Source: Escherichia phage vB_EcoS_SA126VB
Sequence record: OL960573.1
Strand: one strand, 5' to 3'
DNA length: 61,753 bases
The notes below the pieces were generated by a model. The model was given only the letters and a program-made list of their open reading frames with translations, searched no databases and had not been told where the DNA came from. The translations under genes and the position numbers were made by a program. Numbering within the stretch: position 1 is the first letter of the stretch; each line of letters begins with the position of its first letter. Shown here in pieces: positions 3,707-50,577 of this stretch.

Positions 3707-4579
3707 ATGAAAAAGAGTTCTGTAGCTATTAGTGTTGGTATGGCTTTAATTAATCCACGCGCTCGCGGTGAAGGTGATGTGGAACTGGAATACGAATATG
3801 CATCTGCGGAAGAGATCCCGGCAGAGTTTGCAACTCTTTACGCAGAGCAGGGCGGTAAATACGTTCTTGCAAAAGTTAAAGGTGTAGCCCCTGCTGATAG
3901 CGTTCGTCGTCTGGAAAGTGCGTTAGCTAAAGAACGTAACGACCATCGTCAGGTGAAGCAACAGATTAGCGCACTTGGGCGTCCGGTTGAAGAAGTCCTT
4001 GCGGACCTTGATCGTATCCCTCAACTGGAAGCTGCCGCTAACGGTAAAGGTACTCCGGAAGACATCGAAAAGATGGTTAAAGCCCGTCTTGCTCCGCTCG
4101 AGCGTCAATTACAAACTGTAGCAGCTGAACGCGATTCCGTTAAGCAGGAAATTGAAGGCTACCGCACTCGCGAAACTAAAGCGAAAATTAAAGACGCAGT
4201 TATTGCTGCTGCATCCGGTGCTAAGCTGCGTCCGTCTGCTATCGAAGATGCGGTGACTTATGCACAGTTGCAAATGACCGTCGACGAGAACGGCAATGTG
4301 GTTACGAAAGATGGGGCTGGTGTAACTCCATACCTGACTCCGGCTGATTGGCTGAACGAAATCCTTCCGAAACGTCCGCACTGGGTTGAAGGATCTGCTG
4401 GTGGCGGTGCGTCTGGTCCGGGCGCTGGCGGTCATCACGGTGAAGACCCATACAGTCACGACGGTTGGAACATCTCTAAGCAGATGAATCTCTGGAAAAC
4501 TAATCAATCTTTAGCTAAACGCTTAGCTGAAAAGAATGGCGTAGACCCGCTGAAGCCTGTACGTCCTGCTAAGAAATAA
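3707..4579 (+). CDS. putative scaffolding protein
   Basis: 290 aa, charged helical sequence between portal and major capsid genes; GGAGA RBS. Confidence 0.5.
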   Translation: MKKSSVAISVGMALINPRARGEGDVELEYEYASAEEIPAEFATLYAEQGGKYVLAKVKGVAPADSVRRLESALAKERNDHRQVKQQISALGRPVEEVLADLDRIPQLEAAANGKGTPEDIEKMVKARLAPLERQLQTVAAERDSVKQEIEGYRTRETKAKIKDAVIAAASGAKLRPSAIEDAVTYAQLQMTVDENGNVVTKDGAGVTPYLTPADWLNEILPKRPHWVEGSAGGGASGPGAGGHHGEDPYSHDGWNISKQMNLWKTNQSLAKRLAEKNGVDPLKPVRPAKK

Positions 4580-45759: not shown

Positions 45760-46224
45760 TTAAGAGTATGTACCTGTTTGAACAATGTGATTAATAGCAT
45801 GTGCTCTGAAGATTTCTCTAAAATCTTCAAGTTCTATTGTAGCACGAATTGGCTCCTTTTTAATATAATGATTGAACTCATTAATATCAAAGACGGAAGG
45901 GTTCATACATATAACAACTTTCCAACCCGCTCTAGGAATCTTATACATTAAGACTGGGATTTTATTACATTCCTGTGCAGACTTAACAGTTTGCTTCCAC
46001 CATGTGTTAACAGCAAGAGTTGCATGGTTTTTGATCTCTACACAATATTGGCAAGTATTATCAATATCCGCACCACCTACAGCCGATTGATTTTGTCGCC
46101 TTTGTGCAATAGGTTTAGGTGGTAACGGTTTACCAATAAGCTTATGCACTTCCGCATAAATATCGTTGAAAAAATCGCAAGCTTCCCTTTCAGCTCTCTG
46201 ACCTTTTTGCCGTATGTTGACCAT
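45760..46224 (-). CDS. putative Holliday-junction resolvase-like nuclease (Hjc/PD-(D/E)XK-like)
   Basis: KGQRAERE plus DIDNTCQYCVEIK (D..E.K) pattern; ATG 46224 with AAGGAA RBS. Confidence 0.4.
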   Translation of the reverse strand: MVNIRQKGQRAEREACDFFNDIYAEVHKLIGKPLPPKPIAQRRQNQSAVGGADIDNTCQYCVEIKNHATLAVNTWWKQTVKSAQECNKIPVLMYKIPRAGWKVVICMNPSVFDINEFNHYIKKEPIRATIELEDFREIFRAHAINHIVQTGTYS

Positions 46225-46702
46225 GATTTGCAAATTCCTTATGTAGTTCCAATCTTTTAGTTCTAACCCAAGCTTTAGCAGCTTGTAAACCTTCAGGTGT
46301 AAGTTCAAAATACTTTGATACCAAAACACCTTTTACATGTAAGTTTGCATAATAGACTTGAATGCCATTATGTTTTGTAATAGTTACGCACTTAACACCA
46401 GTCTTTGAGTCTTTACGAATAACCATATTATAATTGTTCTGTGAACGATCAGCCAGTCTAAGATTTTCTATTCTGTTATCATCTCGAACTCCGTTAATAT
46501 GATCAATTATCTTGTCTTCAGGAATATCACCATTGAAGTATTGCCATATTAACCTGTGAGCGAAATAAAATCTCTTATCAATTTTACCTTGAATGTAACC
46601 GTCCTGACGTTTTGTACCAAATGGTCTTTTATTATAACCGTTTTTATTTCTTTGAAATAATTTGCCATCTATATAAATAAAGCGATCGTTTACATTGATC
46701 AT
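46190..46702 (-). CDS. HNH homing endonuclease (HNH_3 plus AP2-like domain)
   Basis: IDHINGVRDDNRIENLRLA HNH core; ATG 46702 with AAAGGAGG RBS. Confidence 0.7.
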   Translation of the reverse strand: MINVNDRFIYIDGKLFQRNKNGYNKRPFGTKRQDGYIQGKIDKRFYFAHRLIWQYFNGDIPEDKIIDHINGVRDDNRIENLRLADRSQNNYNMVIRKDSKTGVKCVTITKHNGIQVYYANLHVKGVLVSKYFELTPEGLQAAKAWVRTKRLELHKEFANHGQHTAKRSES

Positions 46703-47086: not shown

Positions 47087-47404
47087 TCAATTTTGCGCGG
47101 TTCCCTTTGCCGCTTTTGGTGCTAAAGTACCATCATTTAACATCAACTCAAAACCTGTTACTTGATCGGTTGGAACAATAGGGTAATTCATGATAGCCAT
47201 GTGGATACAACCCCCTCCATCACATTCGTCGATGTATTCACTACCCCAATAGTATAAATGACCATCTCTTCGAATATCCATTGCTGTAGGGAAATCTACA
47301 AGAATTCTTTTGATTTCTTTTCGTCCTTCTTTATGCAGATTAGTTTCAATACGGATAAGCTCCGCATAAATTGCTTCACAGATAGTGTTTACAATACTCA
47401 TCAT
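47087..47404 (-). CDS. hypothetical protein
   Basis: 105-aa ORF with ATG start. Confidence 0.45.
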   Translation of the reverse strand: MMSIVNTICEAIYAELIRIETNLHKEGRKEIKRILVDFPTAMDIRRDGHLYYWGSEYIDECDGGGCIHMAIMNYPIVPTDQVTGFELMLNDGTLAPKAAKGTAQN

Positions 47405-47748
47405 TTACCCCTTAAGTTTTGAATCATTCTATCACAGGCAGCTTTTACAGAAGAATTTTGCCAGTCTTCCTCAATTTGTGAAGGTTCTTCATCATAGAGC
47501 ATTTTCCAGATTATACGATGTGCCAGATAATGAAGACCGTCTAGACCAACAAGAATATAAACGTTTCGGTCTTTAACAACAGCGCGACCAGCTTCTTTTC
47601 CTGCGAACTGAGAGTTGAATTTGGAACAAGCTCTTTGTGTTTTAAAGAACTTTAAAGGCGCTTTCTTCCATCTTAAAATGCCAGTCTCTTCATTATACTC
47701 AAAACGATCATGCAAATAGTCAAATGAAGGTAAAGGTCTAAATTTCAT
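47401..47748 (-). CDS. truncated, degenerate HNH-endonuclease-like paralog (possibly non-functional)
   Basis: Shares YNEETGIL and AHRIIWKMLYDEEP with the 42641 HNH gene; catalytic IDHxDGN replaced by IEEDWQN; no AP2 domain; ATG 47748 with weak RBS. Confidence 0.4.
   Translation of the reverse strand: MKFRPLPSFDYLHDRFEYNEETGILRWKKAPLKFFKTQRACSKFNSQFAGKEAGRAVVKDRNVYILVGLDGLHYLAHRIIWKMLYDEEPSQIEEDWQNSSVKAACDRMIQNLRGK
47482..47523. repeat. 42-bp exact repeat, copy 2
   Basis: Identical to 42935-42976. Confidence 0.9.
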
Positions 47749-47989
47749 AATATTACCTATAACCAATAAAAGAACCAGAAATAACCAGCTACGAAAATAG
47801 CACCCGCAAATAATTTTAAAAGTTCGAACATTGTTCCCTCCGTTAACTTTATGCTGTAAGTATAGCAGGACTTGCGATGTATGCAACAACTTTAGACTTG
47901 AAATACATCTATAAAATAGCACGATTTGCCTTTACCTTTGATCCGTCTAGCTGTACTATTAACTCATAAACAGAGCGGAGGATTACAAA

Positions 47990-48214
47990 ATGGTCATGCT
48001 GAATAAAGTATATAGCACAATGGGCGCGGATTATAAAGTTGTACGTCACCCGCGTACTGGTAAATTTGAAGCATACATCCGTCCAATGGGTGAAGGTTGG
48101 ATGTATTACGGTACTTATGATGACGCTGAGCAAGCTTATAAAGAAGCGGAAAGTGTAGCGGAAGCATCCGAAATTATGGCAAGGTACGACGTCGATGATT
48201 ACTACCTTAACTAA
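47990..48214 (+). CDS. small rightward gene embedded in the leftward block
   Basis: 74 aa; GGAGG RBS 9 nt before ATG; strong terminator immediately downstream; overlapping minus ORF 47909-48217 judged spurious. Confidence 0.45.
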   Translation: MVMLNKVYSTMGADYKVVRHPRTGKFEAYIRPMGEGWMYYGTYDDAEQAYKEAESVAEASEIMARYDVDDYYLN

Positions 48215-48246
48215 CAATAAAGGGCCGAAAGGCCCTTTATTTATTT
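48215..48246 (+). terminator. rho-independent terminator
   Basis: AAAGGGCC-gaaa-GGCCCTTT followed by ATTTATTT; overlaps stop of leftward primase gene. Confidence 0.65.
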
Positions 48247-50577
48247 GCTTAAGTCCTTGAAAACACTCTCAATCGACTCGTCTATATACCAACCCAATCC
48301 CCTGAAATTACGCTTCAACGCATCTTCACGCGTGACTGGAACGAGCGCGCCCATATCTACAAGTTGTTTGATAGTAAGGTCTGTTGCAGTACCTGCTCCC
48401 ATCCTGTGATTCTTGAATGCTGCCAGACCGTATGTCCTGCGTGTGATAGTTGCCTTCGGGATAATACCGTCAACGCGCAGCTCCTTACGATCACATGCAA
48501 TCTTACCGCCAAGATAGTCTTTGCAGACCTGGCAAATAGCCTTCACGCGCGTTTCATCATCACCACCAATAGTACCTTTTTCCCATGCGTTGATCATGAT
48601 GTCCTGCCCATGCGTAACAAAATCTACCGCCCATTGCATGTGATTGGGCTGAACGACAGGATTGATCCAGTTTTCCCCTACCGCTAGCAGGGACGCAAGG
48701 CGCAGAGCTTTAAGGTGCGCACGGTTCCACGGCTGACGAATAGCTTCGTCTTTAGTTGCGTTAATGTGTTCATCACACAACAAGTTAAACTCCCGCTCAA
48801 TCCTTGCAGCTTCCGGGCTTAACTGGACGGTGACGGTCTGGAACTTCGCCATTGTTACTAACGTGTGGTTAACAAGATGGCACACCATATCCTTTAATTG
48901 CTGGGGCATTGTGATTTCAGGATTTTCGTTTGCAGGAACACGATCCCCTTCATATTGCACAATGTGGAAACGGGACAAGAAACCGTCTTCCATCATTTCA
49001 CGTGTTAACGCTTCAAAGAATGTGTCCGGTGTTGTTTCGCCCAGCACGCTGAACGCCACCCCTTCCATCGTCTTGGTATTATTAGCCTTATCAGAATATC
49101 CAATACCGCCAACAACATCCATCGCACCAGATTTTTGATACACATCTGTAATAGTTTGCTTCAGGGTATAGTTCGCAGTACCAGGCTGAGCTGTCGCCAT
49201 ACCTTTAATGGTTTTACCAAACTCACCGTTAATATTCACAAACGAAGTATGATCCGCAAAACTTTTACGCAAAGCAGGACCGGAAGCATAGTTAGTCATG
49301 TCTACAAATTCATGCACTTGCGGCAATTGCTCGCCTACCTGCTTACAAATATAGCTGGGTCCAGCGTGAAGCATTTCTTTACCCACACCTGATCGGGCAA
49401 TAAGGACAAAGTAACCGTTCAGCCCTGTGTTGGTGATAGTATTCCACACCTTGCCACATACGCCGGATAAGAATGCTAAAGATGCAGTGATTGCAATTTC
49501 TTTCACCGGACGCTGCGATGCTTTGTAGATATACTTCGCAAGCTCTCCAGCAAGTCCCGGCGGCCATTCAATAGCGGTTGCATCAATGGACGTGCTTTCT
49601 GCAACTACTATTTCACCGGACGGGCTGACTGTGGTTACAGGCATTTCCGTTACCTGCTGCATTGCACTGTGTGCAGCTTGCATACGGGCAGCGTAATCCC
49701 GCGCCAGCGCCGCTACGTTTTCCTGGGCAATACGCTCACGCTCCATACGACCGCGGCACATGCGCAAACAACGGTCAATATGAACATTGTTCTTATTAGC
49801 CTTCTCACGTTTGCCCAGTGCACTGTAACGGAACAGACGGCGACATTGCTCATTACTTTCTGTGTAGAATGCATACATAGAAATAAGAGCAAGATCTGCT
49901 TCAGACTGGGAAGGGAATCCCATTTCAACCCATTCGCCATTGAATAGGCGTGCATACTTGTCCCCGTTGTCCGCTTCAAGTGCACGCTGGTGAATAGTTG
50001 CATCGTCTTCTACCGGATCTTTTTCTACCAGTTCAATTTCATATGTCTTGCGCTGAAGATCAATTTCATTCACAAGCATAGTAAGATAATGATCGCGTTC
50101 AGCAACTGGTTTGTTGTAAACGGGATTACCTGTGCAGATAATAAAACGCTCCTGACTATAAACCTCGACACCATCACGTCGACGACCTTTACCGATGTTA
50201 CCTCTTAACCACAGGTGAACACCCAAGCCTGAGCGACTTACTTCGGTGTAAGTATCGAACGCAGTCATGATCTGTTCGAAGCGGCGCAACTGTTCCGGCG
50301 TTGTGTGCTTCTTGGGATCCGGTTCATTGGTTGCGTTCTTCACATCCAGGTCGATGCAGGTGAACGGGTCTTGCGCAGTAAGCACAAAGCCAATATAAGG
50401 TTTGTTGAAATGAGCGGCGCAACCTTTGGCAGCTTCAAAAGTCATTAGCATATCCGGATCGGTAACGTCCGCCGCCATCAAACGTCCGATATCGTTGTCC
50501 CATACGAGCGGCTTTTTGTCCGTATCGGCGACCGCCCATTGTGGGAAAGCTTTAATCTCAGCGGGAAACAATTCCAT
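48241..50577 (-). CDS. replication protein with primase-polymerase (PrimPol)-like N-terminal domain
   Basis: 778 aa; N-terminal YIGFVLTAQDPFTCIDLD...GLGVHLWLRG..GVEVYSQERFIICTG resembles bifunctional primase/polymerase domains; central P-loop-like ARSGVGKE. Confidence 0.55.
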   Translation of the reverse strand: MELFPAEIKAFPQWAVADTDKKPLVWDNDIGRLMAADVTDPDMLMTFEAAKGCAAHFNKPYIGFVLTAQDPFTCIDLDVKNATNEPDPKKHTTPEQLRRFEQIMTAFDTYTEVSRSGLGVHLWLRGNIGKGRRRDGVEVYSQERFIICTGNPVYNKPVAERDHYLTMLVNEIDLQRKTYEIELVEKDPVEDDATIHQRALEADNGDKYARLFNGEWVEMGFPSQSEADLALISMYAFYTESNEQCRRLFRYSALGKREKANKNNVHIDRCLRMCRGRMERERIAQENVAALARDYAARMQAAHSAMQQVTEMPVTTVSPSGEIVVAESTSIDATAIEWPPGLAGELAKYIYKASQRPVKEIAITASLAFLSGVCGKVWNTITNTGLNGYFVLIARSGVGKEMLHAGPSYICKQVGEQLPQVHEFVDMTNYASGPALRKSFADHTSFVNINGEFGKTIKGMATAQPGTANYTLKQTITDVYQKSGAMDVVGGIGYSDKANNTKTMEGVAFSVLGETTPDTFFEALTREMMEDGFLSRFHIVQYEGDRVPANENPEITMPQQLKDMVCHLVNHTLVTMAKFQTVTVQLSPEAARIEREFNLLCDEHINATKDEAIRQPWNRAHLKALRLASLLAVGENWINPVVQPNHMQWAVDFVTHGQDIMINAWEKGTIGGDDETRVKAICQVCKDYLGGKIACDRKELRVDGIIPKATITRRTYGLAAFKNHRMGAGTATDLTIKQLVDMGALVPVTREDALKRNFRGLGWYIDESIESVFKDLSK

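Follow-up and report, generated by a model that had tools for sequence, protein, structure and literature searches.

A gene for a small acidic, putatively AP2-like protein at an operon boundary of Seuratvirus-type phages

A single small rightward gene in Escherichia phage vB_EcoS_SA126VB, lying within a long leftward block, is a real protein-coding gene under purifying selection and a fixed feature of an operon boundary in Seuratvirus-type phages rather than a recent acquisition. Based on profile comparisons and a predicted model, we conclude that its product is a diverged stand-alone AP2-like domain, which differs from the known domains of this type by its strongly acidic character. The gene call itself adds nothing, since relatives already annotate it as a hypothetical ORF; what is new here is the predicted fold of the product and its acidity, together with the layout of the operon boundary and the conservation of the slot in which the gene resides. 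PHROG 22269, a family without an assigned function, thereby gains a predicted fold, and an acidic AP2-like domain that has lost most of the DNA contacts is a candidate for a DNA-binding scaffold reused for something else. The locus is also a well-defined operon boundary, with a terminator, back-to-back candidate promoters and an invariant block, in a phage group that is represented in the BASEL collection and has been studied for its 7-deazaguanine DNA modification, so that functional hypotheses would be cheap to test. An earlier note on the same DNA had described a small rightward gene with its own RBS and terminator and a less convincing leftward ORF overlapping it, all of which holds, and had interpreted the gene as an independently transcribed, antisense-oriented insert; independent transcription is plausible, but the words antisense and insert are not supported.

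A conserved coding gene in a fixed position

All coordinates given here are positions in the window, i.e., the whole 61,753-nt stretch of record OL960573.1 (Escherichia phage vB_EcoS_SA126VB). It represents nearly the entire genome of an E. coli siphophage of the Seuratvirus type (Queuovirinae) and is matched best, at the DNA level, by OddieOddie, VogelGryff, SA80RD, Seurat and CAjan. A rightward structural block occupies approximately 1-25 kb and a leftward block for replication and nucleotide metabolism approximately 25.4-54.6 kb, the right end being mixed, and it is within the leftward block that the small rightward gene sits. The features of the locus are listed in Table 1.

Table 1. Features assigned at and around the small rightward gene
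Feature	Position	Strand	Details
Candidate leftward promoter P_L of the next leftward operon	47859..47886	-	-35 TTGCAT 47886..47881, 16-nt spacer, extended -10 TGcTATACT 47867..47859
Conserved block TTTAGACTTGAAATACATCTA, 21 bp	47891..47911	.	Between P_L and P_R; nearly invariant in all 7 lineages
Conserved block ATAGCACGATTTGCC	47916..47930	.	Abuts the P_R -35; degenerate direct copy at 47862-47876
Candidate rightward promoter P_R	47931..47959	+	-35 TTTACC 47931-47936, 17-nt spacer, -10 TACTAT 47954-47959
Shine-Dalgarno sequence GGAGG	47977..47981	+	8 nt before ATG; CGGAGGA invariant in all lineages
CDS, 74 aa, acidic, predicted stand-alone AP2-like protein (Seurat gp59 family, PHROG 22269)	47990..48214	+	Coding statistics, homology, model, charge
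Predicted bidirectional intrinsic terminator	48216..48246	both	11-bp stem, GAAA loop, A-run upstream, T-run downstream; stability and covariation
Primase stop codon TAA	48243..48241	-	Overlaps the last stem base of the terminator and the T-tract
Primase gene	48241-50577	-	Convergent neighbour of the small gene

Both elements named in the earlier note, a 74-aa ORF and a GGAGG sequence ahead of it, are present, the spacer being 8 rather than 9 nt. The ORF (ATG at 47990, TAA at 48212-48214, 74 codons) is identified as a genuine rightward gene with its own RBS by codon-position bias, dN/dS and conservation in relatives. Among close relatives, the third codon position of the plus-strand frame accounts for 13 of the 22 variable columns; in this frame 13 changes are synonymous and 10 non-synonymous, and the Nei-Gojobori dN/dS of unsaturated pairs is 0.23, 0.15 and 0.07 (the range quoted for the gene being 0.07-0.25). 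The N-terminal peptide MVMLNKVYS is invariant although the codons beneath it differ, a serine being encoded by either AGC or TCT (a full switch) and a leucine by either CTG or TTA, and the length, start, RBS and frame of the gene are kept across lineages that are saturated at synonymous sites. Length would not by itself make the ORF significant, there being 77 ORFs with 30 aa or more that overlap this 6.5-kb stretch, and a generic terminator pattern scan of the region gave no enrichment (7 found versus 6.8 expected); the evidence comes from conservation and not from pattern matches, and in the case of the terminator from stability and covariation. The overlapping leftward ORF (47909-48217), about which doubt had already been voiced, was rejected as spurious: it has 5 synonymous versus 18 non-synonymous changes, neither an ATG nor an RBS, a TTG start inside the terminator hairpin, and stops that interrupt it in diverged lineages. 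A gene caller that takes the longest ORF would choose this spurious frame.

Conservation in relatives was checked, and the same ORF was found on the same strand and in the same position in every relative opened. In Seurat (gp59), CAjan (AJT60547), SA80RD (SA80RD_67) and all other relatives opened, it is annotated as a hypothetical protein, without a fold or function, and these are the same gene, with 93-100% identity and the same position, strand and terminator. The small protein matches PHROG 22269 (E 1e-53), to which no function is assigned. A tblastn search returned approximately 33 phage records at 93-100% identity together with one 39% orthologue in Salmonella phage STP-SP5, and an exhaustive HMMER search combined with contig look-ups added members at 54-58% and 39% identity. 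A scan of IMG/VR for diverse contexts yielded only three close loci, the diverged members having come from the direct look-ups, and no host or plasmid copies of the promoter block or of the small protein were found. In each case the member is the sole rightward gene at the spot, with approximately 230-240 bp to the upstream leftward gene and 26-30 bp to the convergent primase gene.

The gene had previously been called an insert. However, it is located at exactly this position in every Seuratvirus-type genome examined, and it should not be regarded as an insert because its position is fixed, its GC content is genome-like (0.427 versus 0.442 for the genome), and the slot is conserved in neighbouring genera. 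In the latter, Pantoea phage Vid5 ORF60 (73 aa; L013 1897-2118) and phage 9g gp24 (76 aa; L014 1923-2153) are also convergent with the primase gene, have a net charge of -8, and possess their own promoter and hairpin, namely a clear sigma-70 promoter at an equivalent distance from the RBS (TGGACT-16-TATAGT and TTGCAT-16-TATAGT in Vid5 and 9g) and a GC-rich bidirectional hairpin. By eye these proteins look similar to the small protein, but the hhalign probability is below 2% and HMMER detects nothing, and they are considered here as positional analogues only. The acidic genes found in the Vid5 and 9g slot suggest that the slot, and not only the gene, is conserved, for which "insert" is the wrong word. 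The slot is absent from Pseudomonas phage JG054.

The locus resembles a moron in that one small gene runs counter to its neighbours and has an intrinsic terminator of its own; the promoter-like elements ahead of it amount to a weak, although conserved, match (TTTACC-17-TACTAT). In contrast to morons, it is not polymorphic for presence and absence, its base composition is not deviant, and it is fixed in the genus, while it is the slot and not the gene that is common to 9g and Vid5.

The locus is mosaic. In comparison with STP-SP5, the primase is 91% identical whereas the small protein is 35-39% and the gp57-like protein 43% identical; in comparison with Seurat, it is the small protein that is closer (95%) and the primase that is more distant (77%). 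The C-terminal third of the primase (48241-49200, minus strand) occurs as two alleles with approximately 60% amino acid identity among otherwise close relatives, and these alleles assort independently of those of the small gene: in KS_A3, the small protein is identical to that of SA126VB but the primase carries the other allele. The terminator hairpin appears to be the recombination junction between the small gene and the primase alleles. The small-gene alleles are old, with saturated synonymous sites, and are under purifying, not diversifying, selection.

Terminator and candidate promoters of the boundary

The hairpin AATAAAGGGCC-GAAA-GGCCCTTTATT at 48216-48241, followed by the T-rich TTTATTTATTT, lies where the small gene and the primase gene converge. 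The terminator claimed previously is thus present with both its hairpin and its T-run, although the stem is 11 bp long and not the quoted 8 bp, and the overlap of the T-tract with the primase stop codon was likewise correctly seen (Table 1). The hairpin folds with -17.3 kcal/mol on the plus strand and -18.2 kcal/mol on the minus strand (z = -4.7 and -4.5), and none of 200 shuffled sequences was as stable. Five stem variants occur across lineages, all of which pair (GGGCC/GGCCC, GGGGC/GCCCC, GGGGCC/GGCCCC, GGGTC/GACCC, and GGGCGC/GCGCCC, the last in Vid5 and 9g), while the loop varies freely (GAAA, AAAT, TTTC, GTTT, TAGT, ACAC) and the hairpin is always bordered by an A-run and a T-run. Paired changes in the stem, a free loop and flanking A- and T-runs are the signature of a functional bidirectional intrinsic terminator, and the records of SA80RD and Seurat annotate a terminator on both strands here. 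A stable GC-rich stem-loop, A- and T-tracts and pairing kept in evolution predict a functional-looking terminator at the end of the leftward primase operon, which would be common to the small gene and the convergent primase gene. The description of the small gene as antisense is not borne out: it is antisense to nothing, because the predicted terminator would end its transcription unit before the primase coding sequence. No Rfam match to a structured RNA was found at the locus.

Upstream of the gene, the candidate rightward promoter P_R has a predicted start near 47966. Its match to the consensus is weak (8/12) and it is absent from the promoter scan output; its TACTAT -10 element is unchanged across 7 diverged lineages in which synonymous sites of the coding DNA have reached saturation. 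This conservation, together with the sigma-70 promoter sequences in the equivalent place in 9g and Vid5, makes independent rightward transcription of the small gene plausible. On the opposite strand, the TGCTAT motif of the candidate leftward promoter P_L is invariant (TGCTATA(C/A)T across seven lineages), and its -10 reads TATAAT in STP-SP5 and the lineage L021. We infer that P_L and P_R are candidate back-to-back promoters. The literature yielded neither transcriptomes nor functional work on this gene or on the promoters of Seuratvirus.

Two conserved blocks lie between these candidate promoters. TTTAGACTTGAAATACATCTA occurs only once in the window, and E. coli genomes contain nothing that matches it; it may be a site bound by a protein or an UP-like element. 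The second, ATAGCACGATTTGCC (47916-47930), forms a degenerate direct repeat with ATAGCAGGACTTGCG (47862-47876), 54 bp apart; the minus strand of both copies reads TGCTAT, resembling an extended -10, and the first copy is the candidate -10 of P_L. The second copy might serve as a further leftward promoter or as a binding site. The possibility that these blocks belong to a phage-wide promoter or operator motif was considered and rejected: a 17-nt core is unique in the genome, and the 15-mer has one degenerate copy, 54 bp off, which is largely the common -10-like TGCTAT motif. ATAGCACGATTTGCC is missing only in the lineage L019 (approximately 3930-3990, on the contig with P0004), where the rightward -35 is the near-consensus TAGACA. 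This -35 may compensate for a lost activator site, a single observation.

The intergenic gap, annotated as 241 bp in relatives, is actually approximately 158 bp (47832-47989), because it holds a conserved unannotated ORF of 24 codons. This ORF (47757-47831, minus strand; RBS GGAGGG at 47836-47841) is the first after candidate P_L and encodes the hydrophobic peptide MFELLKLFAGAIFVAGYFWFFYWL, whose substitutions are conservative and which is kept even in STP-SP5 (MFEFVKIFASVIFIALYFWLMYWV); it is not annotated in relatives. The peptide has no PHROG match, and it may be a small membrane protein. Another ORF of 30 codons (47877-47969, plus strand), annotated as SA80RD_66, bas21_0065 and KS_A3 CDS0064, overlaps the promoter blocks and is probably an annotation artefact, not a gene.

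Further to the left, homing-endonuclease sequences were observed. The ORF 47401-47748 (minus strand, 115 aa) is chimeric, joining a decayed HNH endonuclease to the end of gp58: residues 2-92 match the HNH homing endonuclease family phrog_99 (E 5e-17), ending before the HNH motif, and residues 86-115 correspond to the C-terminus of the usual 65-aa gp58 family (phrog_36709). STP-SP5 carries an intact 184-aa version at this site, and 47401-47748 therefore looks like a hot spot of homing-endonuclease insertion and decay beside the promoter region. An intact HNH_3 homing endonuclease gene (46190-46702, minus strand; Pfam E 3.7e-21) lies approximately 1.3 kb to the left of the small gene; it is missing at that position in several relatives and is part of the surplus of this genome over Seurat.

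Predicted AP2-like fold and its acidic charge

The AP2 domain (PF00847) is the top Pfam match of the small protein, below threshold (E 0.024; 15.4 bits, where the gathering cutoff is 33.3). Across 8 family members, the lowest E value is 0.0018. A profile of the family was compared with 1.8 billion proteins, giving 39 matches. Besides the fragment P0013 and the spurious P0005, the matches from outside the family are long proteins with several matching stretches, and all ten of the long matches that were scanned have 2-8 Pfam AP2 domains (E 1e-17 to 1e-64). The profile matches these multi-AP2 proteins with E values down to 1e-17, family residues 17-51 mapping onto their AP2 domains, and hhalign of the family against an alignment of those domains gives a probability of 97.8%. 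As a non-circular control, hhalign against the single AtERF1 sequence scored 24.6 (P = 1.8e-4), whereas 100 shuffles had a mean of 9.1 and a maximum of 16.4. The top PDB sequence matches are ERF096 and WRI1, at only E ~0.1.

Structure prediction, proposed earlier as a check, gave a model in which residues ~7-43 form a small antiparallel beta-sheet that lies against a long C-terminal helix (46-71), with a disordered, acidic-aromatic tail; the predicted model thus has the three-stranded antiparallel beta-sheet on one alpha-helix that defines an AP2 domain. A Foldseek search against viral models found only the family itself at significance, the remainder being uncharacterised small phage proteins. 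With respect to the two exceptional HMMER entries, P0005 was discarded as a spurious match to a short repeat, and P0013, a metagenomic protein of 45 aa in which an unrelated N-terminus precedes the last 32 residues of the family, probably represents a copy that was truncated or recombined, or else an ORF called in error.

Compared with the AP2/ERF domain (PF00847; the GCC-box-binding domain of AtERF1, 1GCC/2GCC; TEM1, 7ET4), the small protein remains below the gathering score, is acidic and not basic, adds an invariant N-terminal strand as well as a long acidic helix and tail, and stands alone with 74 aa. AP2-like modules are also phage-borne in HNH homing endonucleases (phrog_99, phrog_953), whose DNA-binding part alone matches, weakly, over the same residues; in contrast to these, the small protein lacks a nuclease domain (no HNH match) and is fixed, not mobile. 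An origin from the HNH endonuclease of the same genome was considered and discarded, as the two proteins have no detectable similarity.

All 8 family members are acidic, with a net charge of -2 to -12 and a pI of 4.05-5.05, versus +7 and 11.2 for the AtERF1 domain. In the SA126VB clade, the sheet half carries +3, as in AtERF1, and the helix and tail together carry -8, whereas in the clade of STP-SP5 and P0017 even the sheet half is negative. The tails are acidic-aromatic (DVDDYYLN, DEPDYDFCY, DDYNFGYC, SDFY), and neither their length nor their last residue is conserved. The base-contacting residues of AtERF1 we take to be R150, R152, W154, E160, R162, R170 and W172. Among the seven equivalents, only R31 (R162) is invariant in the family, R19 (R150) is kept in the SA126VB clade only, Y39 replaces W172, and nothing equivalent to R152, W154, E160 and R170 is left, their places being taken by P21/H20, T23, Y29 and W37 or a gap. 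The conserved Arg/Trp/Glu contacts of AP2 domains are thus for the most part not retained, and the face that would contact DNA is rich in conserved aromatic residues (Y29, W37, Y39). The SA126VB protein itself keeps K16, R19, K25, R31, Y39 and T42 at AtERF1 contact positions; with its sheet charge of +3, DNA binding would still be possible for this clade. The acidic charge of the family as a whole, set against that of AtERF1, argues against sequence-specific binding of double-stranded DNA.

Possible modes of action

We tentatively prefer the view that the small protein acts by binding another protein, not DNA, and is transcribed from its own weak promoter, a possibility that we would place somewhat short of probable. 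According to this view, host RNA polymerase would transcribe the gene early from the weak sigma-70 promoter P_R, and the strong RBS would allow efficient translation. The product would then bind a protein rather than DNA, as a decoy or inhibitor, with the acidic helix and tail, and perhaps the aromatic face of the sheet, occupying the basic surface of some DNA-binding protein, whether of the host or of the phage; the helix and tail might mimic nucleic acid. This view is favoured because no other is compatible both with a family that is acidic throughout and with the acidic analogues that fill this slot in 9g and Vid5. Against it, a gene beside a strongly conserved and unique non-coding block is the classic setting of a local regulator, and, with dN/dS values under 1, there is no hint of an arms race, which counts against a decoy. 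T7 Ocr, T4 Arn and AcrIIA4 are alike in size and strong acidity, a likeness that concerns only the possible mode of action: the small protein shares with DNA mimics its small size and strong acidity (in 8 members), whereas no sequence or fold relationship to the known acidic mimics was found and none of them is among the significant fold matches. A lead towards AcrIIA4 (Pfam E 0.077, NCBIfam E 0.04, in one member only) was dropped, as the hhalign P value of 0.079 was within the range of shuffled controls.

A more far-reaching version of protein binding, which we consider unlikely although by no means negligible, is that charge reversal and contact loss have turned an AP2 fold into an acidic decoy against one of the host's DNA-binding proteins, for example a defence nuclease or nucleoid protein, and that the primase-convergent accessory slot holds different small acidic inhibitors under their own early promoters in Seuratvirus, Nonagvirus (9g gp24) and Vidquintavirus (Vid5 ORF60). 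The decoy reading, if true, would indicate that a slot for accessory genes has been conserved in three genera.

The main alternative, conceivable although on balance rather unlikely, is that the protein is a local DNA-binding regulator, whose AP2-like sheet, perhaps together with the invariant N-terminal peptide, would bind 47891-47911 and/or 47916-47930 and control P_R and/or P_L, the acidic helix and tail facing away and possibly contacting RNA polymerase. AP2 is a DNA-binding fold, R31 is invariant, K/R16, Y/W29 and W37 are conserved, and the sheet half of the SA126VB clade resembles that of AtERF1 in charge; on the other hand, the family is acidic throughout, the sheet half of the STP-SP5/P0017 clade is negative, and four of the contact equivalents (R152, W154, E160, R170) have been lost. 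The gene diverges from the operon across a unique block that is nearly invariant where coding DNA is saturated, the -35 of P_R is poor, and a conserved block is centred near -43, an activator-like position. However, the sheet residues differ greatly between the protein clades without matching changes in the conserved DNA blocks, and these blocks could equally be explained as host-factor sites or UP-like elements. The near-consensus -35 of L019, the sole lineage without that block, would fit the loss of an activator site, although such compensation is seen in this one lineage.

The best experimental precedent for sequence-specific repression by small phage proteins with an AP2-family domain is provided by the CasPRs, phage-encoded transcriptional silencers of cas genes that combine a cysteine-rich CapR zinc finger with an AP2 domain whose conserved arginines are needed, and that are found in acr loci of Bacillota prophages (bioRxiv 10.64898/2026.02.23.707548). 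The small protein is not a member of this group, having neither CapR nor any cysteine and, with 74 aa, no room for a second domain, and being encoded by a virulent enterobacterial phage.

A third explanation, which appears quite improbable, is that of a replication accessory factor acting together with the neighbouring primase/helicase or a different component of the replisome, for instance as a competitor at the sites to which acidic tails of single-strand-binding proteins attach. A small acidic gene always adjoins the primase gene in three genera, and the tails are disordered and acidic-aromatic; however, tail length and last residue vary, Pseudomonas relatives with a homologous primase lack the slot, and the small-gene alleles are independent of the two primase C-terminal alleles, as illustrated by KS_A3 and by STP-SP5. 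Finally, the idea that the ORF is a functionless, decaying remnant of an HNH-AP2 homing endonuclease, with only the terminator and promoters being of importance, is hardly credible: the family does match such endonucleases weakly over residues 15-56 (phrog_99, E 0.0095; phrog_953, E 0.045) and HNH genes and fragments lie nearby, but there is neither similarity to the HNH protein of the genome nor a flanking nuclease remnant, and the strong purifying selection, together with the length, start, RBS and frame conserved across saturated lineages, already largely refutes it.
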